Shown piece by piece: positions 5,845 to 52,258 of a DNA stretch of 58,068 bases. A program made the position numbers and the translations under genes. Under the pieces are notes generated by a model. The model was not told where the DNA came from. It saw only the letters and a list, made by a program, of their open reading frames with translations, and made no database searches. The stretch comes from Spirochaetales bacterium (GTDB lineage: Bacteria > Spirochaetota > Spirochaetia > JAFGDJ01), in contig JAFGDJ010000040.1 in NCBI GenBank assembly GCA_016932135.1, positions 1 through 58,068 of the forward strand, read 5' to 3'. Numbering within the stretch: position 1 is the stretch's first letter; each line of letters begins with the position of its first letter.

Positions 5845-5850
5845 GGTAAT

Positions 5851-7374: not shown

Positions 7375-7385
7375 GAGGCAAAGCC

Positions 7386-8906: not shown

Positions 8907-8937
8907 CAGTTTCTCCTTTTACATTAAACCGACGGTT

Positions 8938-11106: not shown

Positions 11107-11171
11107 AGATCTTCTTTATACTATATCGGTTGAAGCCGCCGGAGGTCTAAAGGGTAAATCCTTCAAGGTTT

Positions 11172-11966: not shown

Positions 11967-11978
11967 AGCCTTATCTCC

Positions 11979-14024
11979 CTAGAGCTGTTCAAACCAGAAG
12001 CACACCGTATCGCGGGGATCTACGGCGTAGTAAAGATACCCGTAATACACCGAAGAAACAAGCACCTTCTTGACATAGCGCCGGGTTTCGGTCACCGGAA
12101 TAGCTTCAACGAAAAGATCCGGCGGAAGGGTACCGAATTGACGCCTCCAGGTACCCACCCGGCCCGGTCCGGCATTATACGCCGCCACGGCGCAGGCAGA
12201 AAAAGGAAACTGCCCTCGCAGCAAGGCCAGATACCAGGCGCCTATCATGGCATTGTCCGCCGGATCGTTCAGATCGTATGACCCATAGGACATGAGCTCT
12301 GCGACGTAGGATGCCGTGGAAGGCATAAGCTGGCTTAAGCCCGCAGCCCCGGCCCAGGAGCGGATATCCGGTTGAAAGGCGCTCTCTTCCCTCACCAAGG
12401 CGAAAAAAAGATGGGCCGGCAGATCATTCCTGTCAGCCGCCTCGGCTATCTCCTTAAGAAACCAGCGGGGGAAAAGCATCTTCAGGGCATCTCCGCCCGG
12501 AGGAAGACTCCGCAGGCCGTCCCAGCGGAGCATAATCCTCATGGAATCCAGGTACCTTCCCTGCCCTGCCGTAACCTCTGCAACCTTTACAGCCCCCGAA
12601 GGGCTGAGGTCGGCCAGCCGGACATAGGTTTCCTCCAGGCCAAGATCGATCATCCCCAGGGAAAAGAAGGGGAGAAGAAACTCATCCGTCGGTGTCGGAT
12701 TTTCCAATGCACCGGCGGGGGAAATGATCTTCTCATAGTCGGGAACCTGATTGCCGGAAAGCCGCAGGCCGGATAGAAATCCGTAATACCCCCGGGGATC
12801 CGCCTCCACCGCTTGGGCGAACAAAACCCCCGGGTCGCCATCTCTTAGAAAACCCTCTTCCAGGGCCCGGGCTTCCAGGTACAGGCTCCTGGACCGCTGG
12901 CTGGGACTTCCATAGGCTTTTACAATTCCCCCTAAAGACCGCAGGTCTTCCCATCGCCCCAGACGAAGCAAAGAAGCGGTAAGCTCATCAAGAACACCTT
13001 CATAATCCTGAGGGTTTCGGACAGAAGGAAGAATTTGGAGGGTTTTCTTAAGGGTTTCTTCAGGACCGGAAGTCCAAAACAGGGCGGAGAGGAGCATTCT
13101 GCCCGCCTGTTCCGTGATCTCGTCGGGAATCGGAAGAGATCCCAGGTATTCCGCCGCCTCATGGGTCCGGCCGGCCGACAGATACAATGATCCGATTTGT
13201 TCATGCACCGCTGCGCGGAGATCCGCGTTCCAGGAGCGTCCAAAAACTTCCAGGAGCTCTAAGAAAAAGACCAGCCCTTCTTCTTCCCCCGCCGCCTGGC
13301 GGAACAGGCTTCCCATTTCCCTCATCAAGAGGGGAGATGCAAAAGCCCCCTGTTCCAGATACGTCTTCAATAAAGGCAGAGCTTCTTCAAGACTGCCGGA
13401 AGCCAAGGCCGCCTTTCCGCGGATGAGGAGAACCAGGGAATCCTTCGGTTTCTTCGCCAGGGGGTAGAAAAGGTATTCCGAAGCCTTCAAATGATCCGGC
13501 CCGGCGGGATAATCGAGAAAAAGTCGCTCCAGCCGGTCTTCCCAGGGAGATAAGCCCATTCTTCGGGAGGCTTCGGCCAGCACCAGCAGCCCCCGGGGGC
13601 TGGAGGACAGATCCTCCGCTTCATGAGCCGTCCAGAGAGCCTGCCGACGTTTTCCCAACCGGAGTAAAATCTCAGCTTGGAAAACTAAAAAGTCCGGATC
13701 TCTGCCGAACCGGTCCAAAGCGTCGGTGGAAAGGTTTAAGGCATCCCTGTACCCCCCGGCGTCGATCAACCCGGCAATTAAACGCTTCAATCCTTCCCGG
13801 TACGCCAGGGTCTCGTCAGGCCGCGGAAGCAACAGCCGGTAATAATCCAGGGCTTTCTCCACCTCACCCAGATACTCCGCTTTACGGCCGGCATAATAGG
13901 GGAATTCTTCCCGGAGTTCCGCCGGATCGTGCATCGAGCTGCTAACCGTCCCCCGGCAGACGGGAAAGGACAGGAGTATTCCCAGAGACAGAAAGAACCA
14001 CCTACAGAAAGATAGACGTCTCAT
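11979..14024 (-). CDS. Slt70-like lytic transglycosylase with N-terminal TPR/helical region
   Basis: C-terminal SLT motifs REESAF, GLSQLMPST, AYNAGPG, ETRRYVKKV. Confidence 0.9.
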   Translation of the reverse strand: MRRLSFCRWFFLSLGILLSFPVCRGTVSSSMHDPAELREEFPYYAGRKAEYLGEVEKALDYYRLLLPRPDETLAYREGLKRLIAGLIDAGGYRDALNLSTDALDRFGRDPDFLVFQAEILLRLGKRRQALWTAHEAEDLSSSPRGLLVLAEASRRMGLSPWEDRLERLFLDYPAGPDHLKASEYLFYPLAKKPKDSLVLLIRGKAALASGSLEEALPLLKTYLEQGAFASPLLMREMGSLFRQAAGEEEGLVFFLELLEVFGRSWNADLRAAVHEQIGSLYLSAGRTHEAAEYLGSLPIPDEITEQAGRMLLSALFWTSGPEETLKKTLQILPSVRNPQDYEGVLDELTASLLRLGRWEDLRSLGGIVKAYGSPSQRSRSLYLEARALEEGFLRDGDPGVLFAQAVEADPRGYYGFLSGLRLSGNQVPDYEKIISPAGALENPTPTDEFLLPFFSLGMIDLGLEETYVRLADLSPSGAVKVAEVTAGQGRYLDSMRIMLRWDGLRSLPPGGDALKMLFPRWFLKEIAEAADRNDLPAHLFFALVREESAFQPDIRSWAGAAGLSQLMPSTASYVAELMSYGSYDLNDPADNAMIGAWYLALLRGQFPFSACAVAAYNAGPGRVGTWRRQFGTLPPDLFVEAIPVTETRRYVKKVLVSSVYYGYLYYAVDPRDTVCFWFEQL

Positions 14025-34015: not shown

Positions 34016-35911
34016 TCACACCCCACCCTGCCTGTACCAGCCGAGAATACGAAAATCCTCAACCCCTTCTTTCAGCTTCTCCGCTGCCTGAGTAAACCGA
34101 TCCACCTTACCGGTGATGTCCAGGTCGATATAAAACATATATTGCCAGGGACGTCCGTGAATTGGTCGGGATTCCAGTTTCTTCATATTCAAATCCCGGT
34201 TTACCAGCTCTGAAAGACAATGAAACAGAGCCCCCGGTTTGTCCACCGCGGAAAAGACAAAGGATACTTTATTAATTTCCTCCGGAGTGGGTTCTTCCAG
34301 ACGGGAACAGATAAAAAACCGGGTGTAGTTATTGGGATTCGTCTCCAGGCCTTCCTTCAGAACGGCCATCCCATACACGGCGGCAGCCTTCTCACCGGCG
34401 ATGGCTGCCCAATCCTCCCGGTTTTCAGCAGCCACATGGGCCACCGACCCGGCGGTATCATAAAATGGCACCCGTTCCAAACCGGGATATTTGTCCAGGA
34501 AAGCGGCACATTGAGCCAACCCCTGGGGGTGAGAAAAGACCCGCTTTAGTTTTTCGATCTTCGTCCCTTTTTTCCCGATGAGGTTGTGGACAATGCGAAG
34601 GGTTTTTTCCCCGACAATTTTGATATCCGGATAGCGTAATAAAAGGTCGTAGTTCTCATGGATCGATCCGGTGAGGCTGTTTTCAATGGGCAGGATGCCG
34701 TACCTGGCTTTTCCATCCAGCACCGCGCGAAACACTTCCTCGAAGGAGCCGCAGGGGAAGATGTCATGATCAATATGAAAGAAATAACGCTCCAGAGCCT
34801 CCTCGCTGTACGCGCCGGGCTCCCCCTGAAAAGCCACTACCGTTTTTCCTCCGGTAAAAGCCTTATCCACCGCCCACAGGGGATGTTTTTCCGGAAGATG
34901 CTCGATTTCCTTTCCGATAACCGGAGAAAGGGCTTCCAGGTCACGCATGAGTTTTTCAAACTGCTCGGGATATAATGACTGAGGTCCGTCTGAAAGCGCG
35001 TGTTCAGGATCGGTATGAACCTCTACTATTAAACCGTCAGCCCCCGCCGCGATTCCCGCCAAAGCCATGGGAGGGACCTTTTCCCTGATTCCCGTGGCGT
35101 GACTGGGATCGACGATCACCGGCAGGTGGCTGAGCTTTTTAATCACCGGGATAGCCGAAAGATCCAGGGTGTTCCGGGTGTAGGTCTCAAAGGTCCTGAT
35201 GCCCCGTTCACAAAGAATCACATCTTCGGTGCCGTGGGCCAGAAGGTACTCCGCCGCCATGAGCCATTCCTCAATCTTGGCGGCCATTCCCCGTTTTAGG
35301 ATAACCGGCAACCCCGCGGCGCCTACTTTTTTCAGTAATTCGAAATTCTGCATGTTCCTGGCGCCGATCTGAAAGACATGGACATAACCGGCCGCCATTT
35401 CCACGGTTTCCGTGGCCACAACTTCCGAAACCACCGGAAGACCTACGGCGTCTCCCGCCTCCCGGAGGTACTGTAGTCCCTCTTCACCCAACCCCTGGAA
35501 GTCATAGGGGCTCGTCCTGGGCTTAAAGGCGCCGCCCCGGAGCATTACCGCGCCTGAAGCTCTCACGGTTTCGGCGATTCGCATCATCTGATCCCGGGAT
35601 TCCACCGCGCAAGGGCCGGCAGCCACGGCAACCCGGCGCCCGCCTATCCTTACCGGACCGAGAGAGATCACGGTGTCTTCCTTTTTCAACTCCCGGGAGG
35701 CAAGCTTATAAGGTTTAGAGATGGGGATAACCCTCTCCACTCCGGGAAGAACCTCCACTTCCCGGGCGTCCATACCGATTAGACCGACGGCGCCCAGAAC
35801 GGTTTCCGCTTCCCCGACGATTTCCCGGATTTTATACCCCTTTCCTTCAAGAAAGGTGATAACACCTTGTTTTTCTTCGGGGTGAATAGATTGTGAAAGC
35901 ACGATTATCAT
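34016..35911 (-). CDS. aroF: Fusion of class I-beta DAHP synthase (with N-terminal ferredoxin-like regulatory domain) and prephenate dehydratase-ACT
   Basis: AGPCAVES, RGGAFKPRTSPY, CERGIRTFE, VDPSH; then VAFQGEPGAYSE, PIENSLTG, SHPQ, NYTRF, LESRP. Confidence 0.93.
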   Translation of the reverse strand: MIIVLSQSIHPEEKQGVITFLEGKGYKIREIVGEAETVLGAVGLIGMDAREVEVLPGVERVIPISKPYKLASRELKKEDTVISLGPVRIGGRRVAVAAGPCAVESRDQMMRIAETVRASGAVMLRGGAFKPRTSPYDFQGLGEEGLQYLREAGDAVGLPVVSEVVATETVEMAAGYVHVFQIGARNMQNFELLKKVGAAGLPVILKRGMAAKIEEWLMAAEYLLAHGTEDVILCERGIRTFETYTRNTLDLSAIPVIKKLSHLPVIVDPSHATGIREKVPPMALAGIAAGADGLIVEVHTDPEHALSDGPQSLYPEQFEKLMRDLEALSPVIGKEIEHLPEKHPLWAVDKAFTGGKTVVAFQGEPGAYSEEALERYFFHIDHDIFPCGSFEEVFRAVLDGKARYGILPIENSLTGSIHENYDLLLRYPDIKIVGEKTLRIVHNLIGKKGTKIEKLKRVFSHPQGLAQCAAFLDKYPGLERVPFYDTAGSVAHVAAENREDWAAIAGEKAAAVYGMAVLKEGLETNPNNYTRFFICSRLEEPTPEEINKVSFVFSAVDKPGALFHCLSELVNRDLNMKKLESRPIHGRPWQYMFYIDLDITGKVDRFTQAAEKLKEGVEDFRILGWYRQGGV

Positions 35912-41780: not shown

Positions 41781-43310
41781 CTATTGCTTAACGCGTTTTA
41801 CCCGCCCTTTCAATTTCACCACAAACCGGTTGTATAGCGGTGTCTGGCTTACGATCATGAACAGTATCACCAGGAACAGGATGAGAGCCACGGGCCGCGT
41901 GAATACCGGTAGAAAACTTCCTTTCGAAACCATCAAAGCCCGGCGCAGATTGCTGTCGCACATGCCTCCGAGAATGACCCCAATTACCAGGGGCGCAATG
42001 GGATATTTCATCTCCGTCAGGAAATACGCGATAATTCCCACCGGGAGCATGAGGTACAAATTAAAGATATCCGTTCCCAGGGCGTAGGACCCGATAATAC
42101 AGAGCACCCCGATAACCGGCATAAACAGACTGGTGGGTATTCTCAGAACCTTGATCACCTGTTTGGCCAGGAAAATACCGCAGATCCACATGGCGAAGGA
42201 AGCTAAAAGAAGAATAGCCGTAACCTGAAGGTAGAAACCCGGATGATCAATGTTCAGCATGGGCCCGGGGTTGAAACCGTGCAGAAGCAGGGCGCCCAAA
42301 AGCATTGCCGCCGGAGGGCTTCCCGGAACCCCCAGGCTCAGCAGTGGAATCATCGCGCCGCCAATACAGGCGTTGTTCGCCGTTTCCGTGGCTACAACGG
42401 CTTCTTCGACCCCGGTACCGAACTTATCGCCGTCCTTGCTGAACCGCTTAGCGGCGCCGTAGGAGACCCATCCGGCGATATCCTCACCGATGCCCGGCAC
42501 CGCGCCGATGCCGACCCCGATAAGAGCCGACCGAATTATCTTCGGGGTATATCGGAAGATCTTCTTAAACCCGGGAACGATCCGGTCAACCTGGGCCATT
42601 TCACCGAATTTAAAATTATCCCGCAGGGTCTGGATAATCTGCGGGATCCCGAAAGCGCCGATCAGTACCGGGACCAGGTCAAGACCGCTGTCGAGCTGAC
42701 TGAATCCGAAGGTAAAGCGGGGATAATTCTGCAGCTTGTCACGGCCGATGGTGGCCATCCACAAACCGATAAGCCCCGCGATCCACCCCTTTATAACCAG
42801 GTCCGGGCTTGTAAGGGTTCCGCTGATGACAATGCCCACAAAGGCAAGAAGAAAGAACTCAAAAGATGTAAACTCCAGGGCCATCTTGGAAATGATGGGG
42901 GAAAAGGATACGACAAACAGCATGCCGATAAATGTTCCGATGGCTGAAGCGGTGGTGGTTAACCCCAGGGCTACTCCGGCCTGCCCTTTCTTCGCCATGG
43001 GGTAGCCGTCCATGGCCGTGGCTGCTGCCGCCGCCGTACCGGGAATATTCACCAGAATGGCCGTGTACGAGCCACCGTACACTCCTCCCACATAGATCCC
43101 CAGGAGAGCCACCATGGCGGTGGCGGGACTCATTCCATAGGTCAGGGTTGTCAGCAGGGCAACTCCCAAGGTCGCGGTGAGACCGGGGATAGCCCCGAAA
43201 ATAATGCCCATGATAACGGAGGCAAAAAGAAGAACTAAAGCCCCCGGATTTGTAACCAGGGCGGCAAGTTCCAGGATAAATTGTTGTAATGCTTCAAGGG
43301 CGAAGGACAT
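41781..43310 (-). CDS. tctA: Tripartite tricarboxylate transporter large subunit
   Basis: GAIPGL, YGGSYTAILVNIPGT, DGYPM, ETANNA, PLLSLGVPGS; SD AGGAGG before ATG43310. Confidence 0.94.
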   Translation of the reverse strand: MSFALEALQQFILELAALVTNPGALVLLFASVIMGIIFGAIPGLTATLGVALLTTLTYGMSPATAMVALLGIYVGGVYGGSYTAILVNIPGTAAAAATAMDGYPMAKKGQAGVALGLTTTASAIGTFIGMLFVVSFSPIISKMALEFTSFEFFLLAFVGIVISGTLTSPDLVIKGWIAGLIGLWMATIGRDKLQNYPRFTFGFSQLDSGLDLVPVLIGAFGIPQIIQTLRDNFKFGEMAQVDRIVPGFKKIFRYTPKIIRSALIGVGIGAVPGIGEDIAGWVSYGAAKRFSKDGDKFGTGVEEAVVATETANNACIGGAMIPLLSLGVPGSPPAAMLLGALLLHGFNPGPMLNIDHPGFYLQVTAILLLASFAMWICGIFLAKQVIKVLRIPTSLFMPVIGVLCIIGSYALGTDIFNLYLMLPVGIIAYFLTEMKYPIAPLVIGVILGGMCDSNLRRALMVSKGSFLPVFTRPVALILFLVILFMIVSQTPLYNRFVVKLKGRVKRVKQ

Positions 43311-43318
43311 ACCACCTC

Positions 43319-44071
43319 CTAATATTTCAGCGAGTAATACAGGTAATTCATCTGCCCGATAAGAAGCCCTTCCTTGGGCAGAGGAACAAGCAGGGCGTAC
43401 CTGAAAACGGGGCAGAGGAATAAGGGTGTCAGTACCGCTACGAACAGGACAGTACGTAATTTTTTCAGCGGCACATTTTCCCGCTTCATTACTTTTCGGG
43501 CCTGCATATACAGGAACACCAGGAACAGCAACGCCATAAAATCCATGGAATAGACATACAGGCCGTTCAGAAGGCGGGCCAGGGGGCTGATGTAAAAAAG
43601 CACCAGAACAGCGCATTCCAGGATATATACAAAGGTTACCCGCGTAAAAACCCTTTTATTTTCAGCATAAAAAACCGTGCACACAAAAGAAAGAAAGAAC
43701 ATGATACTGATCATGAAGTCGATCCGGGGAATGAAGAGATACACAAAGGTGATAAGAGACAGGAATACGACCATGGTCCGGACGGTCCGCTCATCCAAGC
43801 GGGACCCTGTTTTTCGCTTCGCCGCCGCTAAAAGGCTCGCAAGGCCACCCTGCCTGACCGCTGTTCCCATTAAAAGAACTCCCAGTAGAATAACACCTCC
43901 GCCGATGAACAGGGGGAACAGGGCCGGAGCCACATACCAATGGGTTTCCACCCCACCGTAACTGGCCTTCATCGGCATGCCGGTTGAAACCAGAATAACG
44001 AAAACACCGAACAGAATGAGAATAATCGACGTTATAAAATCCGATCTGCGCAAACTCGCTTTTTCATCCAT
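43319..44071 (-). CDS. tctB: Tripartite tricarboxylate transporter small subunit (unusually long)
   Basis: Lies between tctC and tctA; APALFP and F...LLVPLP motifs; about 7 hydrophobic segments. Confidence 0.8.
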   Translation of the reverse strand: MDEKASLRRSDFITSIILILFGVFVILVSTGMPMKASYGGVETHWYVAPALFPLFIGGGVILLGVLLMGTAVRQGGLASLLAAAKRKTGSRLDERTVRTMVVFLSLITFVYLFIPRIDFMISIMFFLSFVCTVFYAENKRVFTRVTFVYILECAVLVLFYISPLARLLNGLYVYSMDFMALLFLVFLYMQARKVMKRENVPLKKLRTVLFVAVLTPLFLCPVFRYALLVPLPKEGLLIGQMNYLYYSLKY

Positions 44072-44091
44072 ACACAATACCCTTTTCAATG

Positions 44092-44119
44092 AAGGGACCG
44101 GCCTTTCGGCAGGTCCCTT
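44092..44119 (-). terminator. Intergenic stem-loop after tctC (mRNA stabiliser or partial terminator)
   Basis: Minus strand AAGGGACC-T-GCC-GAAA-GGC-C-GGTCCCTT; GNRA loop; no strong U-tract. Confidence 0.6.
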
Positions 44120-44154
44120 GGATGCATCCGAAAAAAGACTTTCCTAAGTCGTCC

Positions 44155-45174
44155 TTACGGCCGGGGAATATTCAGATCCGCCGGGTCCACATCAGCGGCG
44201 CCCAGTTCCCAGAGAGTCCAGGCAAAGTTGGATTCCAGCGAAGCGAAAATCTCGTTCGCCTCGGGTCCGCGCTTCCCGGAGAGGACATAATACTTTTCCT
44301 TGCCGAAATCCAGGACCGCCTGGGATTTCATAGCCTTGTCGAAAGCCTGATAGAGCACTTCTTTCCTTTCCTGCGGGGTATCGGCGGCTACGGCAAAACC
44401 AATGGACTGCGGCAGCGGCAGGTAGTCGCTCAAGGACGGATAGGTTTTGAAGGCCGAAGGAATAACCGTTCCGGCCAGGTCAAAGGAATCGGGAATCAGC
44501 ATGCCCAGGGGCTTCAGTTTACCGCCGCGGATCAGTTCGGCCTGTTCAGCCACGGAGGTAATGATAACGGTAATTTCCCCTGTCATGGCGGCGTTCTGGG
44601 CCGGTGCGGAGCCATCATAGGGGATAAAGCTGAAATCGGCACCGGAGCCGTTTTCCAGGGCCAGAAGGTTCAAGTGATGAATCGAGCCGGACCCGCTGGC
44701 ACCGGCCAGGATGGTTCCCGGGTTGGCTTTCGCGTCTTCTATAAGATCCTGGATGGTGTTGTAGGGGGCGTTCGGGGTTACCGAAACCACATCGGGTGAG
44801 CCGCCGATGATAAAGAAGTCCCATACATTCATCCTGTTGCTCCAGGCGCCCTTGACGCCGGCGGTCACATTGGATTCCGACAAGCCGCAGATTGTGTAGC
44901 CGTCATGGGGGGCGCTGTAGGCGTAGGTCATGCCGACGGAACCGGAAGCGCCGCCGGTTTTGTTTATCACGTTTATGTTGACGCCCAGTTCCTTGGCCAT
45001 CTCCGCCATGACGATACGGTTACACACATCGGTGCCGCCACCGGCGCCCCACACCACCACCGTGGTAATGTCCCTTTCGGGATACGGGACTTCCACCCCT
45101 TCCGCCTGACCACCGGCAAAAGCCAGGGCTGCCAAAACGGACACCATCAGTACCGTTAACATCAGTTTTCTCAT
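44155..45174 (-). CDS. tctC: Tripartite tricarboxylate transporter substrate-binding protein (Bug/TctC)
   Basis: Signal peptide AFA-GGQ; YPERDITTVVVWGAGGGTD, NKTGGASGSVG, DGYT, IPYDGSAP; SD AAGGAG. Confidence 0.93.
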   Translation of the reverse strand: MRKLMLTVLMVSVLAALAFAGGQAEGVEVPYPERDITTVVVWGAGGGTDVCNRIVMAEMAKELGVNINVINKTGGASGSVGMTYAYSAPHDGYTICGLSESNVTAGVKGAWSNRMNVWDFFIIGGSPDVVSVTPNAPYNTIQDLIEDAKANPGTILAGASGSGSIHHLNLLALENGSGADFSFIPYDGSAPAQNAAMTGEITVIITSVAEQAELIRGGKLKPLGMLIPDSFDLAGTVIPSAFKTYPSLSDYLPLPQSIGFAVAADTPQERKEVLYQAFDKAMKSQAVLDFGKEKYYVLSGKRGPEANEIFASLESNFAWTLWELGAADVDPADLNIPRP

Positions 45175-45247
45175 CGCTCTCTCCTTAGAATCGATAATAT
45201 CGTTCATGAGGTCGACCGTATACAGGGTAACGGCCGCCTCATAATAC

Positions 45248-46225
45248 CTAGTACTTCAGCACCTCGGGATTAAGACAATCGGGAGGCCTTTCGCCCCTCA
45301 GCATGGCCCGTATATTTTCAGCCGCCTTCAACGCCATACCCTTTCTCGCCGAGCCGGTAGCCGACGCGGTGTGAGGTGTCAGCACGACATTGGTCAGGCC
45401 ACGTAAATCGGGTTCTATATCGGGTTCCCTTTCATACACATCGATACCGGCTCCGGCAATCAACCCTTTCTTCAGGGCTTCGGCCAGCTCTTTCTCCTTC
45501 ACCACCGGACCCCGGGAGGTATTGATGAGGTAAGCCGTCCTTTTCATTTTTCCGAACTCTTCCAGGCCGAACAATCCGGTGGTCTCGGGCAGCAGAGGAA
45601 CATGGATGCTGATAAAATCGGAACCCGCAAGAAGCTCCTCGAAGGAAACCTTCCGGGCTCCCAGGGTTTCTTCCAGGGCGGTATTCTTCCTGGTGTCCCA
45701 GTAGAGGACCGGCATGTCAAAACCCCGGGACATAAGAGCCATGGCGGCTCCGATTCTTCCCGCTCCGACAATACCCAGGGTCCTTCCTGATACATCACCG
45801 CCGATAAACTGCAGGGGTCCCCAGCCGGGCCACCGGCCGGAACGGGCAACAGCATCGGATTCAACGACCCGCCGGGCTGCGGCGAAAAGGAGCGCCCAGG
45901 CCATCTCGGCGGTGGCCTTGGTGAGGACGTCCGGGGTATTCGAGACCGGAATGCCCCGCCGGGTAGCCTCCTGAACGTCCAGATTGTTGTACCCCACCGC
46001 GAAATTGGCAAATCCCTTCACCTCCGGGGCAGCCTCAAAGACTTCCGCGTCGATGGTTTCAGTCACCAGGCAAATGACTCCGTCCTTTCCCCGGATGCTC
46101 GTAAGAAACTCTTCCCGCGTTAAGGCCCGGTCTTCCGGATTCACTTCCACATCAAACTCCGGAGTGAGAAAATCGATCCCCTCACGGGGTATCTGCCTGG
46201 TCACATAGACCGATTTTTTTCTCAT
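45248..46225 (-). CDS. D-2-hydroxyacid dehydrogenase, glyoxylate/hydroxypyruvate reductase type
   Basis: AVGYNN, NTPDVL, GAGRIG, INTSRG, DVYEREP, TPHTASA (Arg-Glu-His triad). Confidence 0.92.
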   Translation of the reverse strand: MRKKSVYVTRQIPREGIDFLTPEFDVEVNPEDRALTREEFLTSIRGKDGVICLVTETIDAEVFEAAPEVKGFANFAVGYNNLDVQEATRRGIPVSNTPDVLTKATAEMAWALLFAAARRVVESDAVARSGRWPGWGPLQFIGGDVSGRTLGIVGAGRIGAAMALMSRGFDMPVLYWDTRKNTALEETLGARKVSFEELLAGSDFISIHVPLLPETTGLFGLEEFGKMKRTAYLINTSRGPVVKEKELAEALKKGLIAGAGIDVYEREPDIEPDLRGLTNVVLTPHTASATGSARKGMALKAAENIRAMLRGERPPDCLNPEVLKY

Positions 46226-47211
46226 GTTTTTATCCGAACAGGAAAAAATAACTGTTCTTCCAGGAACTTCCAGGTGGCTGAAAAATCCGCGCCGGAAATA
46301 AGACCCTTAAACGTGTCTCTGTCGAGACAAAGAAGCCTGTCCCAAAGCTTCTCCGTCCAGCGAGCGTTGGCGTTAAAGGTTTCCACGATATCCTGCCGGG
46401 TGGGAGATGTATCGGAGGTCAGGTAATCGGCGTAGTTGAATTCCTGCAGGTAGAACAGAAATTCCACGTAATCGATGAAATGCTTTGTGGCCACCATATA
46501 ATCCCAGTCCCACTGGCCGTCGTTATCGTTGATATGGATATAGTAGGGATACGGACTGGCCTCCAGCAGACAGAGGGCTTCCGCGGGATTTTCTCCTCCG
46601 TATACGGAATGGCCGAAATCCAGGGTAACCCCGAGGGCTGTATTGCCCAGTTCGTTCAGAAGACACAAGGTCTTGGCCGCCGAATCGATGAAGCACTTTC
46701 CCCGAATTTCATTCGGCTTGTACTCGATAAAAAGCGGGATCTCCCGCCGGTATTCGCCCGCTTCTCCGAAGGCTTCCACCAAGCGTTTCCAGGAAGTGAT
46801 GTAATCATTCTGAAAACTGTATTCGTAACCGTCGCCTAGGGGACAGCATTGTACTTTATCAGCCCCGACGGAGGCGGCGTAGTCCTTGGCAGCCTTCACC
46901 ATGTCAACGGCCTTCCTTCTGATATCGGTATCCGGGTTGGTAACACTGCCCAGGGTGAAATCCATGTCTTTTTTAATGTTCACGTTAATGGCAGCCACTG
47001 ATAGACCGTACCGGGAAAGCAGGTCCTTGAGCACCTCCGGTTCAGGCACTTCGTAAGGATACACGAGCTCAACCCCGTTTATTCCTTCCATCCGGGCCAT
47101 GGTCCGGAACTTATGCTCCAGGTCCGCAGCCTGTTGATAGGTCCGGAACCTGTCCGCCGTCTGTCCGAGAAAACCGGTTATTATGGCGTGTTTTAATCGG
47201 TAATCCTTCAT
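46222..47211 (-). CDS. Xylose-isomerase-like TIM-barrel sugar isomerase
   Basis: IEYKPNE (cf. xylose isomerase EPKPNE), TLDFGH, IHIND, WDWD, TSDTSP metal-site motifs. Confidence 0.85.
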   Translation of the reverse strand: MKDYRLKHAIITGFLGQTADRFRTYQQAADLEHKFRTMARMEGINGVELVYPYEVPEPEVLKDLLSRYGLSVAAINVNIKKDMDFTLGSVTNPDTDIRRKAVDMVKAAKDYAASVGADKVQCCPLGDGYEYSFQNDYITSWKRLVEAFGEAGEYRREIPLFIEYKPNEIRGKCFIDSAAKTLCLLNELGNTALGVTLDFGHSVYGGENPAEALCLLEASPYPYYIHINDNDGQWDWDYMVATKHFIDYVEFLFYLQEFNYADYLTSDTSPTRQDIVETFNANARWTEKLWDRLLCLDRDTFKGLISGADFSATWKFLEEQLFFPVRIKT

Positions 47212-48164
47212 AGGGTCTCCTTTCTTTCCAGAAGCTGTAAAGCGCGGCTGACAATGGTTGAGCAGGAAATACCATACTTTTGAATGACCCTGGGATAATC
47301 TCCGCTCTCGGCAAAGGTGTCGTCCAAACCCAGGTTATCGAAGGGCACCGGGCAGTTCTTGAGAAGCCATGCTGCGATTTCGTATCCCAAACCGTTTCGC
47401 CTCTGATGGTTCTCCGCCACCAGAACGGCCCCGGTTTTTCGCGCCGAGGCGAGAACCCCGTCAGCATCGAAGGGCTTCAATGAATACATGTCCAGGACCT
47501 CGGCCTCCACCCCTCTAGCCGCGAGGCTCTCCGCCGCTTCGAGGGCCTGGAACAGAATATCGCCGTAACTTACAATGGTGATATTCTTTCCCTCTCTCAG
47601 ACAGTGACTGCCGCCGCACTTGAAGGTTTCACTGCCGGAATACACTTCGAAAAGCGGATCCCGCATAAGCCTGGTATACACAGGACCGGGGGTACCCATG
47701 GCCAGGTCAAAAACGGACCGGGCGGCATGGCTGTCCGCCGGGCAAAAAACCTTCATATTCGGCAGGGTCGTCAGAATTGCGATATCTTCAGTCGCCTGAT
47801 GGGTAACTCCATCTATGGCCGCTGTAAGCCCACCGTGAGACGCAAGAAATTTTACATTCAGGTTAGGGTAACAAATAAAACTCCGGATCATTTCCAGGGC
47901 CCGCATGGACAGGAAGACACCATAGGTACAGACCACCACGGTCCTGCCGTCCGAAGCCATGCCGGCCGCGGAAGCCGCTTCGTTCTGCTCCGCGATGCCC
48001 ATGTTGAAATACCGTTTCGGAAAAGCATCACCAAAGAGGTGGCTGTAGGTTGAATACCCGATATCGGCTTCAAAGACGACAAAATCGCCGTCGATGCTGC
48101 CGTATTCCTTCATTCTTTCCGCGAAGGCCCGGCGGGTGGGTTTCTTTGCTTTCTCCAGTTGCAT
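47208..48164 (-). CDS. Transketolase C-terminal (pyrimidine-binding and C-domain) subunit
   Basis: TRRAF, EADI, FNMGIAEQN, DGVTHQ, GPVYTRLMR, ENH; TAATG coupling with the N-subunit. Confidence 0.93.
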   Translation of the reverse strand: MQLEKAKKPTRRAFAERMKEYGSIDGDFVVFEADIGYSTYSHLFGDAFPKRYFNMGIAEQNEAASAAGMASDGRTVVVCTYGVFLSMRALEMIRSFICYPNLNVKFLASHGGLTAAIDGVTHQATEDIAILTTLPNMKVFCPADSHAARSVFDLAMGTPGPVYTRLMRDPLFEVYSGSETFKCGGSHCLREGKNITIVSYGDILFQALEAAESLAARGVEAEVLDMYSLKPFDADGVLASARKTGAVLVAENHQRRNGLGYEIAAWLLKNCPVPFDNLGLDDTFAESGDYPRVIQKYGISCSTIVSRALQLLERKETL

Positions 48165-49018
48165 TACCGATCTCCTCCCAATTCCTCCAGAGCTCTCTTT
48201 AACTGGCCGGAATCCGGCGCCATACCATGCCATTCCCGAAGATCCTCCATGAAACTGACCCCCTTCCCCTTTACCGTGTCTGCGACGATGCAAACAGGTT
48301 TACTCCTGGTCGTACCGCGGGCCAGTTCCAGAGCCAACAGAACCTCTCTCATATCATGGCCATTAATTGAAAGGACCTCCCAACCGAAGGCCCGGAATTT
48401 TTCCTCAATTGAAGCCATGGGTAGAATTTTATCGGTATGACCGTCCATCTGTAGATGATTGTTGTCCACCAGGGCAATGAGGTTGCCCAGATGCCGTGCC
48501 GAAGCCGATGCCGCCGCCTCCCACACCTGGCCTTCCTGGATTTCTCCGTCGCCGAGCAGAACAAACACCTTGTAAGAGGCCCCAAGCATATTCCCTTCCA
48601 TGGCTATTCCGAGACCCATACTTAAGCCCTGGCCGAGAGAACCGGTAGTCATATCAAGACCGGGCGTTTTTCTCATATCGGGATGCCCCTGGAGAATGCT
48701 CTCGAACCGGCGAAGCGTTCCGAGGGCTTCCATGGGAAAGAAACCCCGCATGGCAAGGCAGGCATACACTACGGGACAGGCATGTCCCTTTGAAATGACA
48801 AACCGGTCACGAGCGGGCCAACGAGGTTCCTCCGGACGCAGGTTCATGATATCGAAATACAGAGCCGTAACCATGTCTGCCGCGGAAAGAGCGCCTCCCG
48901 GATGCCCGGATTGAGAAGCGTAAATCATTTTAACGATTTCTATTCTCACTTCTCTGGCCTTGTTTTCCAGGTAAGCAACCCGTTCATCCAGGGTTTTTAA
49001 AGACCCGTTATACTCCAT
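48164..49018 (-). CDS. Transketolase N-terminal (ThDP-binding) subunit
   Basis: SGHPGG, DRFVISKGH, LQGHP, GSLGQG, GDGEIQEG...N, WHG. Confidence 0.95.
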   Translation of the reverse strand: MEYNGSLKTLDERVAYLENKAREVRIEIVKMIYASQSGHPGGALSAADMVTALYFDIMNLRPEEPRWPARDRFVISKGHACPVVYACLAMRGFFPMEALGTLRRFESILQGHPDMRKTPGLDMTTGSLGQGLSMGLGIAMEGNMLGASYKVFVLLGDGEIQEGQVWEAAASASARHLGNLIALVDNNHLQMDGHTDKILPMASIEEKFRAFGWEVLSINGHDMREVLLALELARGTTRSKPVCIVADTVKGKGVSFMEDLREWHGMAPDSGQLKRALEELGGDR

Positions 49019-49889
49019 GATGTACCCTTTCCTTTAGCTTTTCGATAATGAAATCTCGACCCTGTCGGTAAGATGTTTCCACCAGGGCCGGCGGACAGAG
49101 AATCTCCAGGTCATAGGAGCCCGTGTAACCGTAAAGGTCCAGTTTTTCCAGAAGAAACGTCCAGTCAATGTTACCGGTACCGGGGATATCGGAACGATTT
49201 TCCGTTCCCCGGTTGTCACACAGATGGAGAGCCGCGACTCTTCCTTTGAACCAGGGAAGAATGTCGGTTACCGAAGAATCGGCGATAAAATGATGCCCCG
49301 TGTCATAAAGAAGATGTATATCCAGGGCTTCCAGCTCCCGGGGAATCTCGCCGTGTTCATGAAAAATTCGTGAAAGAATGCTGCCGGGCAGGATTTCCAG
49401 GGCGACCGTTCTTCCAAAGCTTCTAGCCACCGCCGCATATTCTTTCAGCGTAAAAATAAAAAGATCCCGGAGACTGACAGAGAAAGACTTGCCGTCTTGC
49501 AGGGCACCCAACGGAACAACCAGGGGAACCGTCGGCGGTAAAGCTTGAAGTTTTCCGCAGAGAGCCACCCAGTCCCGCATGGGAAGGGTGTCGGTCATGG
49601 ACCTCTCCGAAGTAAACAGATGTATAAGAAAGTGAGCGACGAAGGCACTGATCCTCATTCCCCGTTCACCTAGGTCTTCCATGATTGTGTACAGACCATC
49701 ACCTGACCAGTCACCAAGCTGTTCCCGGTGGTACACCTCGAGCTGCAGAACCTGAAATCCCCACCGGTCAAGAAGCTTTATACCTTCCCTAACCTGTTCA
49801 AGGGTAAAATGCTGGGAAAACAGGGAAACCCAAAAAGCCGGGGATACCCCAAAGCTGTTGTTTTCCATCACAGATGCAATATTTTGCAT
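49008..49889 (-). CDS. Sugar phosphate isomerase/epimerase (AP_endonuc_2 TIM barrel)
   Basis: E-D-H-E metal set: ALEILP, LYDTGH, LHLCDN, PGTGNIDW, DLEI. Start is ATG49889 (leaderless) or ATG49868. Confidence 0.82.
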   Translation of the reverse strand: MQNIASVMENNSFGVSPAFWVSLFSQHFTLEQVREGIKLLDRWGFQVLQLEVYHREQLGDWSGDGLYTIMEDLGERGMRISAFVAHFLIHLFTSERSMTDTLPMRDWVALCGKLQALPPTVPLVVPLGALQDGKSFSVSLRDLFIFTLKEYAAVARSFGRTVALEILPGSILSRIFHEHGEIPRELEALDIHLLYDTGHHFIADSSVTDILPWFKGRVAALHLCDNRGTENRSDIPGTGNIDWTFLLEKLDLYGYTGSYDLEILCPPALVETSYRQGRDFIIEKLKERVHHGV

Positions 49890-49893
49890 GCAA
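49884..49893. promoter_or_regulatory. Palindromic operator TTGCATGCAA (copy 1)
   Basis: Perfect palindrome overlapping the predicted leftward start site; identical copy 56 bp away. Confidence 0.65.
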
Positions 49894-49894
49894 T

Positions 49895-49924
49895 ATTTTA
49901 CACACAAGAAAAAGAATTTGTCAA
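49895..49924 (-). promoter_or_regulatory. sigma70-type promoter of the catabolic operon
   Basis: TTGACA(49924-49919), 18 nt, TAAAAT(49900-49895). Confidence 0.6.
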
Positions 49925-49937
49925 TGATTTTTTAAAA

Positions 49938-49951
49938 TTTTGCATGCAAAA
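49938..49951. promoter_or_regulatory. Palindromic operator TTTTGCATGCAAAA (copy 2)
   Basis: 14-bp perfect palindrome between the two divergent -35 boxes. Confidence 0.65.
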
Positions 49952-49955
49952 AACA

Positions 49956-49984
49956 TTGACCGAAGGAATATTTACGAGTACTAT
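49956..49984 (+). promoter_or_regulatory. sigma70-type promoter of the gntR-gntR-AEC operon (leaderless geometry)
   Basis: TTGACC, 17 nt, TACTAT, 6 nt, GTG49991. Confidence 0.65.
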
Positions 49985-49990
49985 ACCCTT

Positions 49991-50641
49991 GTGTACAAAA
50001 TTGAACGGGAAGATCTGGCTGAAAAAGCTTATGAAGCCCTGAAGCTCATGATCCTGCGGGGAGAGCTCCCTTCGGGGGAAAAATTGCTGCAGGAATCCCT
50101 GGCTGAAAACCTGGGAATTTCACGCACCCCTCTTTGTTCCGCTCTGGCAAAACTGGAAAAGGAGATGCTGGTCACCTCCCTTCCGCGAAGAGGATTTTAT
50201 GTAAACCGTTTGAGCCTTAAGGAACTCCTGGACATCTATGACATCAGACTCCGCCTCGAACCCCTGGGAGCCGGGGAAGCGGCGGAAAGGGCTTCAGCGT
50301 CCCAAATTGCAGATCTGGAGTCTGCGGTTAACCCACCAGCCCTAGCCGGGGTAACGGAAAACTACCGTAGTTTCAAGGAATACGATTACCGTTTTCATTC
50401 CCTGGTTATGGAAATAAGCGGAAATTCCTTTTTATCCCGGATGATCCGGTCCTTCAACATCATATCTTTAGGAAACATGCAACATTTTTTCAAAAGTCCC
50501 GAACAAAGCATTGCGGAACATCGTTCGTTGATAGAAGCGATAAAACACCACGACAAGACTGCCGCCGAAAAAACAATGTACACCCACATTGTTCATGCCA
50601 GACAGGTCATAGAGAAAAAGCTGCGGGAAGAGAATGGATAA
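49991..50641 (+). CDS. GntR-family regulator (FCD domain), copy 1
   Basis: LAENLGISRTPL wHTH; RLRLE, DYRFH, SGN, EHRSLIEAI, HI. GTG start chosen from promoter geometry. Confidence 0.93.
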   Translation: MYKIEREDLAEKAYEALKLMILRGELPSGEKLLQESLAENLGISRTPLCSALAKLEKEMLVTSLPRRGFYVNRLSLKELLDIYDIRLRLEPLGAGEAAERASASQIADLESAVNPPALAGVTENYRSFKEYDYRFHSLVMEISGNSFLSRMIRSFNIISLGNMQHFFKSPEQSIAEHRSLIEAIKHHDKTAAEKTMYTHIVHARQVIEKKLREENG

Positions 50642-51290
50642 GCTTAAAAAGGACAGCCTCACCGAACTGGTATACACAAAAATAACCGATATGATCCTGA
50701 ATAAGGACCTGGTTCCCGGTGATAAACTCGTCATCAAAGACCTGGCAAATCTCCTGGGAGTAAGCCAAACCCCCGTTAAAGCCGCCGTGCAACGACTGGT
50801 TCATGAAGGTGTGGCGGAACAACAGAATTCCTCGGGAACCTATCTGAAGGTTTTCTCTAACCGGGATATGGAACATCTTTACGCGGTCCGAGCCGGTTTG
50901 GAAAGTGTATCCTTGCGCTTATGTATGGAACGGTTCGAACCAAAAGAAATCGAGGCAATAACATCGGTCTTCGATATCTTTCAGGACGATAAACCTATCG
51001 ATCCGGTACAATATCAACAGGTGGATCGTCGTTTCCATGAAAAAATTCTGCTTCTTTCAAACAACCCTATAATCATCGATTTCATCCGTAATTTTGATTT
51101 TGTTCTTAAATGCTATCAACTCGGTCTTTTACGGCCGCCGGAAGAAACCCTGCCGGAACACCGGGAAATCATAGGATCAATCAGAAACGGTGACATCGAC
51201 AAGGCCTGCAGATTGCTGATGCATCACCACCTGCGGACAAAAAACGCCCTGGCCGCTTCAGGAGTCCAGGAACGTCAAAGCCCTGAATGA
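50634..51290 (+). CDS. GntR-family regulator (FCD domain), copy 2
   Basis: LANLLGVSQTPVK wHTH; RAGLE, DRRFH, SNN, EHREII, HHL; overlaps copy 1 by 8 nt. Confidence 0.93.
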   Translation: MDKLKKDSLTELVYTKITDMILNKDLVPGDKLVIKDLANLLGVSQTPVKAAVQRLVHEGVAEQQNSSGTYLKVFSNRDMEHLYAVRAGLESVSLRLCMERFEPKEIEAITSVFDIFQDDKPIDPVQYQQVDRRFHEKILLLSNNPIIIDFIRNFDFVLKCYQLGLLRPPEETLPEHREIIGSIRNGDIDKACRLLMHHHLRTKNALAASGVQERQSPE

Positions 51291-52258
51291 TCAGGTTCCT
51301 GCTTCCCATCATCCTTATACCCGCCGGCATCATAACCGGGTATGCTCTTCAAGGGGTATTGAAGAAAAAATATGATACTTCCTCCGTGCGAACAGGAATC
51401 CAGAAAATCACCCTTCTATCACTGAACCCTATAACCTTCCTTGGGGCAATATGGATAGCTCCGTTAAGCAGCGTGAAGGTCCTGTCCATGCCCCTGATCG
51501 GAGCCTTCTCCCTTTCCTTCGGAGGACTCCTGGCCTTCCTTGTTGCCTTGCTGATACACCTAGGCAGGAAACAGAGGGGTTCCTTCATTACCCTGGGAGC
51601 TTTTACAAATATTGGATCCTTGGGAGGTCTTGTAGTATTCAGTCTGCTGGGTGAAGCTGGTTTTGCCCTGGTTCCTTTCTATAAACTCCTGGAAGAAGTC
51701 ATGTACTACGGTATCGGTTTTCCCGTAGCCCGGCTTCATAGCGACACCCCCGACGCCGGGGGCAGATTCCGGCTTCTGGAGCGCATGAAAGACCCCTTCA
51801 TGATCGCGGCCCTGAGCGGCGTTTCTCTCGGTTTGATTCTGAATCTTTCCGGCATTCCCCGGCCTGCCTGGTATGCCGGTTTGAACGGTATCCTTATCCC
51901 CCTGGTATCCTTCCTTCTTCTCGTCTCCATTGGTATGGCTATGAAGCTTCAAAACCTTCGGCGCTATTGGCATTCCGGTCTTTACCTCATGCTGATCAAA
52001 TATCTTCTCGTGCCGGCGGGGGCAACCTTCCTGGCCTGGATCTCCGAGCTGGGCACCATTATGGACGGCCTTCCATTACGGGTCGTTTTTATACTTTCCT
52101 CAATGCCCAGCGGTTTTATTTCCCTGATACCGCCCAGCCTTTATAACCTTGATCTCGATTACGCGAATTCCTGCTGGCTCATCGTCATGGGAGGTCTGGG
52201 GCTGGCTCTTCCCTGGATAGCTTTTGCCGTACGCTTCCTTATACCGCTGATACCGTGA
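51287..52258 (+). CDS. AEC (auxin efflux carrier / malate permease-like) family transporter
   Basis: 10-TM two-repeat layout with FTNIGSLG and SSMPSG crossover motifs, MKDPFM, LVSIG, IKYLLVP. Confidence 0.75.
   Translation: MIRFLLPIILIPAGIITGYALQGVLKKKYDTSSVRTGIQKITLLSLNPITFLGAIWIAPLSSVKVLSMPLIGAFSLSFGGLLAFLVALLIHLGRKQRGSFITLGAFTNIGSLGGLVVFSLLGEAGFALVPFYKLLEEVMYYGIGFPVARLHSDTPDAGGRFRLLERMKDPFMIAALSGVSLGLILNLSGIPRPAWYAGLNGILIPLVSFLLLVSIGMAMKLQNLRRYWHSGLYLMLIKYLLVPAGATFLAWISELGTIMDGLPLRVVFILSSMPSGFISLIPPSLYNLDLDYANSCWLIVMGGLGLALPWIAFAVRFLIPLIP

Follow-up and report, generated by a model that had tools for sequence, protein, structure and literature searches.

A conserved gene island with a split transketolase in a Spirochaetales bacterium and its possible role in the kinase-free breakdown of an acidic sugar

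Gene content and control region of the island

The subject of this work is a gene island at positions 41781-52258 of contig JAFGDJ010000040.1 (assembly GCA_016932135.1) of a Spirochaetales bacterium from sediment; the whole stretch of DNA analysed, 58,068 nt of this contig, is referred to as the window. Genes were called from the open reading frame (ORF) listing of the window and from Pfam and NCBIfam profile searches of the proteins. A sequence-only reading of this DNA had described a tightly coupled operon with two regulator genes and a carrier gene diverging from it. All eleven genes were confirmed by ORFs and by both profile collections, eight of them forming a minus-strand operon and three a divergent plus-strand group:

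41781-43310, minus strand (ORF to 43616): TctA, large membrane subunit of a tripartite tricarboxylate transporter (TTT) importer; PF01970, E 2.5e-133; likely ATG at 43310 after AGGAGG
43319-44071, minus strand (ORF to 44089): TctB, small TTT membrane subunit; PF07331, E 1.4e-7
44155-45174, minus strand (ORF to 45207): TctC, periplasmic binding protein of the TTT importer; PF03401, E 3e-26; signal peptide; likely ATG at 45174
45248-46225, minus strand: GRHPR-type D-2-hydroxyacid dehydrogenase (2-HADH), below called the reductase; PF02826 and PF00389
46222-47211, minus strand: XI2, the signature isomerase, 329 aa; PF01261, E 2e-24
47208-48164, minus strand (ORF to 48293): TktC, C-terminal (Pyr + C domain) subunit of a split transketolase; PF02779 and PF02780; 318 aa from ATG 48164
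48164-49018, minus strand: TktN, N-terminal subunit of the split transketolase, with the thiamine diphosphate (ThDP)/PP domain; PF00456, E 6e-59
49008-49868, minus strand (ORF reaches 49907): XI1, xylose-isomerase-like TIM-barrel protein; PF01261, E 4e-15; 286 aa from ATG 49868
49882-49951: divergent control region with the palindrome TTTTGCATGCAA(T/A)A twice, at 49882-49895 and 49938-49951
49940-50641, plus strand: GntR1, GntR/FCD regulator; PF00392 and PF07729; start possibly GTG 49991
50634-51290, plus strand: GntR2, second GntR/FCD regulator; NCBIfam GntR models PhnR (81.7 bits), NanR and LldR, all below cut-off
51287-52258, plus strand: AEC-like permease, translationally coupled to GntR2; PF03547, 18.8 bits (cut-off 25.7); TIGR00946, 28 bits

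The starts given by the ORF listing are too early for TctA, TctB, TctC, TktC and XI1. The likely starts (43310, 44071, 45174, 48164 and 49868, respectively) were chosen by Shine-Dalgarno-like sequences, and with them most neighbouring genes overlap by 1-11 nt: XI1 and TktN by 11 nt, TktN and TktC by a single shared base (in the ATG at 48164), TktC and XI2 as well as XI2 and the reductase by 4 nt, GntR1 and GntR2 by 8 nt, and GntR2 and the permease gene by 4 nt. The stop of TctB at 43319 is closely spaced to the ATG of TctA at 43310. The carrier gene is present as had been read, but its assignment to the AEC family stays below threshold. The earlier statement that the island contains no sugar kinase, aldolase or dehydratase held, as no kinase, aldolase or dehydratase family was matched by any island protein in Pfam or NCBIfam. 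Upstream the island is flanked by genes for MMPL, a response regulator and SBP_5, and downstream by those for CarD, IspD, IspF, Nth and EF-G; these unrelated housekeeping flanks indicate that it ends at the limits given above. Elsewhere in the window (34016-35911, minus strand) lies a gene for a 631-aa fusion of DAHP synthase, including its ferredoxin-like domain, and prephenate dehydratase.

The two palindrome copies in the divergent control region have 19-nt inverted arms that are 95% complementary. The core has only these two matches in the 58 kb, even if one mismatch is allowed. The chance expectation was 1.0, and as at least two copies occurred in 27 of 100 shuffles, the copy number alone is not beyond chance; it is the placement that matters. 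A promoter-like TTGACA-18-TAAAAT sequence (11/12) for the catabolic operon is on the minus strand at 49924-49895. Among homologous loci of other genomes (designated L001 and so on, see below) a related palindrome, TTTTGTATACAAAA, mostly present twice, occupies the same region of L001-5, L013, L016 and L033. Copies of GntR1 (42-49% identical) diverge from the operon in the same loci, copies of GntR2 (44-50%) occur in L001-5 and L033, and copies of the AEC-like gene (44-46%) adjoin the island in L003, L004 and L033. The paired palindromes are putative operators, through which the two GntR/FCD proteins probably repress the operon.

Protein families and conservation of the gene set

The island encodes a split transketolase, with the PP domain on one chain and the Pyr and C domains on the next. 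The closest PDB structures are those of a split transketolase, 6yak (N chain, E 2e-84) for TktN and 6yaj (E 2e-77) for TktC, the ThDP motif GDG...NN is present in the TktN translation, and the TktC residues aligned to R318, S345, H416, D424 and R474 of human transketolase, which we take to be the numbering and residues of the substrate-phosphate site, are all conserved. Judged by its domains, ThDP motif and phosphate-site residues, the enzyme is predicted to be intact, as would be needed for glyceraldehyde 3-phosphate and xylulose 5-phosphate. Since all phosphate-site residues are conserved, they give no means of telling phosphorylated from carboxylated donors.

In the TktN and TktC trees the island enzymes fell into two clades, one with the window, L033, L016 and L007, the other with L001-5. 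E. coli SE15 AptA and AptB, 40% and 32% identical to TktN and TktC, grouped in both trees (100/99 and 100/100) with a pair on contig C113 of the genome that carries the window (G000), apart from the island clades. Besides that of the island, this genome has at least four split transketolase pairs, whose contexts are unrelated. The C113 pair (L035), the closest to AptA/AptB, is divergent from a FucI-family isomerase and RbsD/FucU; a pair on C45 (L037) follows an amidohydrolase, a class-III aminotransferase and a CN-hydrolase; a pair on C181 (L036), near a ROK regulator, precedes an RpiB-like gene and an MFS carrier; and on C204 (L038) a TktN gene adjoins an ABC sugar importer. In the metagenome copy L033 a full-length fused transketolase (679 aa) adjoins the AEC gene, and the same locus contains an aldo-keto reductase fused to a 4Fe-4S ferredoxin domain (L033 5809-7848, 62-1012).

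Among NCBIfam models XI2 is nearest to those for Arthrobacter-type xylose isomerase (54.8 bits) and L-rhamnose isomerase (53 bits), without reaching the cut-off of either; its closest PDB structure is 3ktc (E 9e-35), presumably a Pectobacterium protein. The probable role of XI2 is the aldose-ketose isomerisation of the imported acid sugar. The NCBIfam matches of XI1 are weak (Hyi 31.7 bits, IolO 31.2 bits, all far below cut-off) and its best PDB match is 3wqo (E 2.8e-5); it is a predicted second isomerase or epimerase. The Atlas entry for XI1 is identical letter for letter to the 286-aa form, and the entries for XI2 and XI1 bear generic names only.

Both 2-HADH Pfam domains are present in the reductase, which scored 369 bits with the PRK13243 glyoxylate reductase equivalog model (below its cut-off of 455) and 238 bits with GhrB; its PDB matches are glyoxylate reductases (5aov, 6bii and 2dbq, E about 1e-92). 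The importer belongs to the TTT family, as PF03401, PF07331 and PF01970 are all over cut-off in one operon, and TctC matches the TTT binding proteins 25hk (E 5e-31), 4x9t and 2dvz in the PDB. The ligands of TTT binding proteins are mostly carboxylates, among them galactarate/glucarate in Halomonas, as described in an excerpt of PMC5812351. Together, the TTT importer and the FCD-type GntR regulators support an anionic substrate, a carboxylate.

Relatives of XI2 number 1858 proteins at E<=1e-10; the best 120 of these are 58-67% identical, their named sources being spirochaete and Desulfobacterales bins and their protein names generic. In the scans, orthologues were found in 8 genome contigs and 2 metagenome contigs (the metagenome scan used XI2 as a single-protein query). 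They were present in 4 of 400 other Spirochaetota genomes and in 3 of 400 other genomes of the order of the Vibrio strain that carries L007, and absent from 399 other genomes of its class (at E<=1e-60) and from 300 other Chloroflexota. In a 38-row tree, which left out five rows with alignments shorter than 220 aa (L049, L051, L053-55), the orthologues formed a clade of 17 rows with 100/100 support and a branch length of 1.0. Three of the 17 clade loci are contigs shorter than 5.2 kb (L014, L015, L034), and features were counted within the fetched stretch of the 14 long loci: the window, L001-7, L013, L016, L033 and L045-47. The flanks of L045-L047 were scanned by tblastn with the island query set alone, so that other genes there are unannotated. 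The DNA sequencing runs listed for this DNA are sediment, marine-sediment and sludge metagenomes, most of them with small shares; no RNA sequencing run was listed.

TctCBA adjoins XI2 in 13 of the 14 long loci (all but L006), a split transketolase occurs in 11 (not in L006, L013 and L045), a 2-HADH in 10, an XI1-type protein in seven and AEC in four (window, L003, L004, L033); five further long loci (L007, L013, L045-47) have another XI-like protein. The XI1 homologues, 29-34% identical, are beside XI2 in L001-5 and L016. TctC and TctA are 51-68% and 61-76% identical, respectively, to the copies in other XI2 loci, where TctB keeps its place between them. L001-5 are close kin and not five separate events. 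The transketolases come from two clades and the reductases from two 2-HADH lineages, PRK13243-like (window, L016) and PRK06487-like (L002, L007), which shows that a combination of functions was conserved rather than one inherited block. The recurrence of the same gene set in other genomes makes the island more than chance. It is real, conserved, catabolic and unannotated, and the earlier view of a catabolic island for an anionic substrate is upheld by the TTT importer and the FCD-type GntR proteins.

Some XI2-type loci have a different company. L013 holds, instead of the transketolase, an aldo-keto reductase, a beta-keto acid cleavage enzyme (BKACE) and two XI-like genes. L006 (Caldilineaceae; 4083-12728) has an XI2 orthologue (57%) without TTT or transketolase, next to LacI, a GFO/IDH/MocA oxidoreductase, a ribose-type ABC importer and an MFS carrier, and the same genome has an island-type transketolase with BKACE and a MOFRL kinase on another contig. 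The paralogous XI2-like Spirochaetota loci L017-L032 have no adjoining transketolase or TTT genes and therefore give no lead to the substrate. Two XI2-like paralogues, 34-36% identical to XI2, stand out: that of L044 (G402:C5, 9018-11845; Caldilineaceae) has its own split transketolase and GntR, and that of L017 (G127:C148), from a spirochaete, has a BKACE 74% identical to that of L013. Their company suggests that the theme of isomerase, transketolase and BKACE recurs in at least one sister system.

Other genes next to the homologous loci were as follows:

L003, L004: PF02595 glycerate kinase adjoining GntR2
L047: PF02595 homologue, 41% identical, after the reductase and a mutarotase
G230 (L016/L041): DUF4147+MOFRL glycerate 2-kinase overlapping the reductase stop
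L043 (Caldilineaceae): island-type transketolase pair followed by a MOFRL-type kinase; BKACE before the pair
L007, L046, L047 (all three gammaproteobacterial transketolase-bearing loci): GalM-type mutarotase after the reductase, in the operon
L007, L046, L047: divergent operon of RpiB, DhaK, DhaL, TPI and an XI-like protein
L013, L033 (also L043): BKACE
L033: DUF1537 acid-sugar kinase, five genes away
L005: TauE and a GH140-like gene

A kinase occurs within the fetched stretch of 7 of the 14 long loci. These kinases belong to four families acting on C3/C4 acids or ketoses; all are for small products, and no hexose-type kinase is among them. The absence of a kinase thus stands for the window operon and does not extend to the homologous loci, as half of the long ones include one. 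Kinases as a routine part of homologous loci were what the sequence-only reading had named as evidence against its scheme, and this objection therefore applies by half. With E. coli SE15 AplK as tblastn query, no FGGY-type kinase was matched beside the island in any locus. A glycerate kinase adjoins the island in four of the 14 long loci (L003, L004, L016, L047). In the genome of the window, which is 81.8% complete, a MOFRL kinase (47% identical) is on contig C129, and neither a PF02595 kinase nor, by tblastn with the L033 kinase, a DUF1537 kinase was found. Glyoxylate carboligase (Gcl, TIGR01504) was over cut-off in none of five island genomes (best 362 bits against 711), and glyoxylate assimilation therefore does not explain the glycerate kinases. 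UxaC is present in three of these five genomes, which makes glucuronate and galacturonate less than obvious substrates.

Exporter-type genes adjoin the island in five loci, four of them with AEC (window, L003, L004, L033) and one, L005, with TauE. Directly upstream of the island in L005 (2333-7623; Oceanispirochaeta bin) are genes for a TRAP transporter (DctP, DctM), a GH140 'apiosidase-like' protein and the TauE-family exporter. Several ORFs of the homologous loci had no Pfam or NCBIfam match, namely those of 484 and 157 aa between XI2 and transketolase in G230 (L016 11645-13580) and those of 161-171 aa after the reductase in L001 (17346-17831), L002 (17281-17796) and L003 (17336-17842).

Comparison with known pathways

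Two side pathways that use transketolase are known, that of apiose, in which it acts after phosphorylation, and that of sulfoquinovose (sulfo-TK), in which a sulfonate stands in place of the phosphate. The published pathways are described here from excerpts of the cited papers. The island is like the sulfo-TK pathway in that a split transketolase would, by our proposal, act on a non-phosphorylated anionic ketose, with an isomerase before the cleavage, a second isomerase, a terminal reductase and, in some island loci, an exporter-type gene. SqwGH cleaves non-phosphorylated sulfofructose and sulfoerythrulose, and the pathway occurs in anaerobic Spirochaetes (PMC9594981, PMC12890257); its accessory families are PF02952, DUF4867, PF02502, PF00465 and TauE (PMC9594981). 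The likeness of the island transketolase to SqwGH is one of split architecture, the trees having been built without SqwG and SqwH sequences.

The accessory proteins differ. The island has PF01261 isomerases in place of PF02952 and PF02502, a 2-HADH in place of the PF00465 alcohol dehydrogenase, a weak AEC match in place of TauE and a TTT in place of an ABC importer, and the sulfo-TK pathway has no counterpart for the glycerate kinase association of the island loci. In Pfam searches no island protein matched the SqvD family (PF02952), whose only gene over cut-off in the same genome is on C113, or the families of SqwI (PF02502), SqwF (PF00465) and SqwE (TauE). PF02502 was found solely in the divergent operon of the gammaproteobacterial loci and TauE solely beside L005. 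PF16161 (DUF4867/SqvB) had no match in the genome of the window, but control genomes gave none either. An identification of the island as the sulfo-TK gene set was rejected on these differences, in line with the earlier reading, which had kept the two apart.

With the apiose pathway the island shares a split transketolase beside a xylose-isomerase-fold aldose-ketose isomerase. E. coli SE15 AptA, AptB and AplK, enzymes of the apiose pathway (ApsI, AplK, AptA/AptB), were located from PMC13001218. In L050 a paralogue of XI2 (33% identical, tblastn E 6e-34) is directly beside AplK (45%), AptB (71%) and AptA (79%); by this synteny and the excerpt of PMC13001218 the L050 isomerase is an ApsI-type apiose isomerase. 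It falls outside the 100/100 XI2 clade. Being only 33% identical to an isomerase that lies so far outside its clade, XI2 belongs to a sister family of ApsI and is not ApsI itself. Moreover, an FGGY kinase, AplK, adjoins AptAB in L050 and none occurs in the island, AptA and AptB are in other clades than TktN and TktC, and the E. coli cluster has an ABC sugar importer in contrast to the TTT of the island. An apiose pathway was therefore rejected, which agrees with what the sequence-only reading had held.

Pathways for other acids were also compared. The tetronate and D-ribonate pathways (LtnD/DenD, OtnI, OtnK, OtnC; Rib2D, OrnI, DerK) combine an XI-fold isomerase with a dehydrogenase and proceed via beta-keto acids (PMC13753588), and a DUF1537 kinase (L033), BKACE and a Dak/TIM/RpiB module stand beside some island copies. 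In the excerpt of PMC13753588 these pathways depend on a kinase and a decarboxylase and use no transketolase, in which the island differs, and the OtnI-type model gave 18.8 bits with XI1 and 28.8 bits with XI2 against a cut-off of 325. The 'glycerate' pathways for glucarate/galactarate and for glyoxylate (Gcl-Hyi-GlxR-GlxK) resemble the island in the import of sugar acids by TTT in Halomonas (PMC5812351). A further likeness is the sequence from a C3 oxo-acid (tartronate semialdehyde or hydroxypyruvate) to D-glycerate and a GarK/GlxK-type kinase, PF02595 kinases being found beside L003, L004 and L047. They differ in that the island has no dehydratase or aldolase, that no glyoxylate carboligase was over cut-off, and that C-C cleavage is proposed to be carried out by transketolase.

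Proposed pathway and its alternatives

From gene content, conservation and protein families we propose that the island may serve a kinase-free breakdown of an imported acidic sugar by transketolase, the donor being not phosphorylated before the C-C cleavage; we regard this proposal as evenly balanced between acceptance and doubt. The individual chemical steps, the acceptor and the substrate named below are read from protein similarity and context. TctCBA would take up the acidic sugar, and XI2 would isomerise it to a 2-ketose acid of the type HOCH2-CO-C(OH)R-...-COO-. The split transketolase would then move the C1-C2 ketol unit onto glyceraldehyde 3-phosphate, giving xylulose 5-phosphate and a shortened aldehydo- or 2-oxo-acid. 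Where needed, XI1 (in other lineages another XI-like protein) would reset the shortened product, and the GRHPR-type dehydrogenase would reduce the final small oxo-acid. With hydroxypyruvate or tartronate semialdehyde as this acid, the product would be D-glycerate, a substrate for glycerate kinase, whose gene adjoins the island in some lineages and lies on another contig in the genome of the window. The sequence-only reading had seen in the island a carboxylate analogue of the sulfo-TK logic. The general kinase-free logic is supported here; the specific hexuronate substrate and the end steps that it had assigned are doubtful.

The substrate is most likely an aldose with a carboxylate. The GalM-type mutarotase in the three gammaproteobacterial loci points to an acidic aldose, and an aldose is also suggested by the better scores of XI2 with aldose-ketose isomerases and by its 33% identical homologue beside AptA/AptB/AplK in L050. 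The end product depends on the carbon chain: an even chain would lead to glyoxylate, an odd or apiose-like branched chain to tartronate semialdehyde or hydroxypyruvate, hence to D-glycerate. Glycerate kinases, the lack of Gcl over cut-off and the presence of UxaC favour the odd or branched chain, and on this comparative context D-glycerate is probably the product rather than glycolate formed from glyoxylate. Such an end product implies an odd-carbon or branched C5-type keto-acid donor; a pent-4-ulosonate and a 3-oxo-isoapionate-like acid are examples. A beta-keto acid that can also be cleaved, phosphorylated or decarboxylated is indicated by BKACE, the Dak operon and the DUF1537 kinase; this would be a 3-oxo-isoapionate-like acid with a branched substrate, or 3-oxo-tetronate with a hexuronate.

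In its most specific form, which we consider improbable, the island would be a carboxylate counterpart of the AptAB reaction: XI2 would convert a branched acidic aldose to a 3-oxo-isoapionate-type acid, and transketolase would split this into xylulose 5-phosphate and a 2-oxo acid, hydroxypyruvate, on the way to D-glycerate. Candidates would be a 3-C-carboxy-tetrose or an aceric-acid-type sugar of pectic rhamnogalacturonan II; we know of no catabolic pathway for aceric-acid-type sugars of this polysaccharide. A 3-oxo-isoapionate-type intermediate would cover the glycerate kinases, the beta-keto-acid cleavage enzymes, the DUF1537 kinase and, by salvage after decarboxylation, the erythrulose-type Dak/XI/TIM/RpiB operon.

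Several observations weigh against a kinase-free route to D-glycerate. The glycerate kinase is beside the island in four of the long loci and not in the window; the exporters would suit glycolate or another excreted end product more than glycerate; and the best NCBIfam and PDB names of the reductase are 'glyoxylate reductase'. These exporters, this similarity and the natural abundance of hexuronates would favour an even chain. Acidic aldoses with a C5 or branched skeleton are not known to be common in nature. The phosphate-binding residues of TktC would be no less suited to a phosphorylated donor. L013 and L045 have XI2 and TctCBA and no transketolase within 20 kb, from which it follows that the XI2 product has other fates. 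The simple scheme also has no need of the beta-keto C4/C5 acids and the decarboxylating branch to which BKACE, the DUF1537 kinase and DhaKL/TPI point. Finally, many of the loci come from related spirochaetes and are not independent.

The alternative that survives best is the scheme put forward by the sequence-only reading, although we judge it unlikely: a hexuronate would be isomerised to a keto-uronate and cleaved by transketolase to a tetruronate, which after conversion to 3-oxo-tetronate by a second isomerase would be cleaved again by transketolase to give glyoxylate, reduced to glycolate and exported by the AEC carrier. It would account for the second XI-like gene in nearly all loci, for the similarity of the reductase to enzymes named glyoxylate reductase, and for AEC or TauE adjoining the island in five loci; hexuronates are abundant, and the mutarotase of L007, L046 and L047 suits them as well. 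As a beta-keto acid, 3-oxo-tetronate would fit BKACE and the DUF1537 kinase of L033, and DhaKL/TPI would fit the salvage of dihydroxyacetone from its decarboxylation, the excerpt of PMC13753588 suggesting that 3-oxo-D-erythronate decarboxylates spontaneously to dihydroxyacetone. But this scheme has no role for glycerate kinases of two unrelated families (L003, L004 and L047; L016; after the transketolase pair in L043). The lack of Gcl over cut-off in all five island genomes leaves it no Gcl route from glyoxylate to glycerate, and 10 of the 14 long loci have no AEC. Its final steps, from glyoxylate to exported glycolate, are thus a poor fit, and a glucuronate- or galacturonate-type substrate is not favoured, UxaC being already present in three of the five genomes.

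Somewhat less probable than the hexuronate scheme is a redox-neutral route in which the dehydrogenase acts first on an aldonate or aldarate. The 2-HADH would oxidise C2, the XI-like enzymes would shift the carbonyl from the 2-oxo to the 3-oxo position (as OtnI and OrnI do) and possibly further, and after a possible decarboxylation transketolase would cleave the ketol, be it an acid or a free ketose, and the same dehydrogenase would reduce the residual oxo-acid. Such a pairing of a dehydrogenase with an XI-fold 2-oxo/3-oxo isomerase is found in the tetronate and D-ribonate routes, which end in dihydroxyacetone phosphate or erythrulose 4-phosphate (PMC13753588), and aldarate import by TTT has a precedent (PMC5812351). 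The single dehydrogenase of the island, the weak matches of XI1 and XI2 to the 2-oxo-tetronate isomerase model, and BKACE and the DUF1537 kinase as signs of beta-keto or tetronate-type acids are consistent with this route. So is the Dak/TIM/RpiB/XI operon, which resembles an erythrulose module and, we presume, the M. smegmatis and Brucella pathways. However, XI2 scores better with aldose-ketose isomerases than with the Hyi/OtnI models, the mutarotase of three loci would have no explanation with a substrate other than a reducing sugar, and an aldonate 2-dehydrogenase of the GRHPR type is not documented in the literature examined.

We also think it improbable, to much the same degree as the AptAB-like branched-acid route and a shade more so than the dehydrogenase-first route, that the island belongs to an ordinary phosphorylated pathway, in which an unlinked FGGY, DUF1537 or other kinase would provide transketolase with a phospho-ketose as in the apiose pathway. 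The complete phosphate site of TktC, the FGGY kinases of the incomplete genome of the window (the best, on C74 and C239, 40% and 37% identical to E. coli AplK) and the DUF1537 kinase near L033 would allow for it, but glyceraldehyde 3-phosphate and xylulose 5-phosphate call for the phosphate site in any case. Against it stand the window operon, which has no sugar kinase inside or adjoining, the failure of the AplK query to find a kinase in other island loci, the negative tblastn search for a DUF1537 kinase in the genome of the window, and the co-occurring kinases, which act on C3/C4 products.

A sulfonated-sugar (sulfo-TK-like) or neutral apiose pathway with unusual accessory proteins is very improbable: sulfo-TK is known in Spirochaetes (PMC12890257), TTT systems import sulfolactate (PMC5812351), TauE and the GH140-like 'apiosidase' gene adjoin the L005 island and XI2 is homologous to the ApsI-type isomerase, but the island has no SqvD, SqvB, SqwI or SqwF, the only PF02952 gene above cut-off sits on C113, the transketolases are outside the AptAB clade with no AplK present, and glycerate kinase and a 2-oxoacid reductase would be out of place if the end product were a sulfonate.

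No account of the breakdown of a uronate or another sugar acid via transketolase was found in the open-access full-text literature, supplements and subscription papers being outside the scope of this search. The island probably adds a variant to the catabolic modules of transketolase type, and the proposed pathway is undescribed in the literature searched. If the proposed kinase-free breakdown is true, a carboxylate can take the role of the phosphate, and this would be a third logic, independent of a kinase, by which sugar acids are fed directly into the pentose phosphate pathway. The island would then also offer a transketolase of potential biocatalytic use, accepting non-phosphorylated acid donors. 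Culturable carriers are the Vibrio strain of L007 and Oceanispirochaeta crateris, whose genome is among the sources of XI2 relatives. Once the substrate is assigned, many sediment genomes could be annotated together, given the number of XI2 relatives, and a carbon source for anaerobic sediment bacteria would be named.

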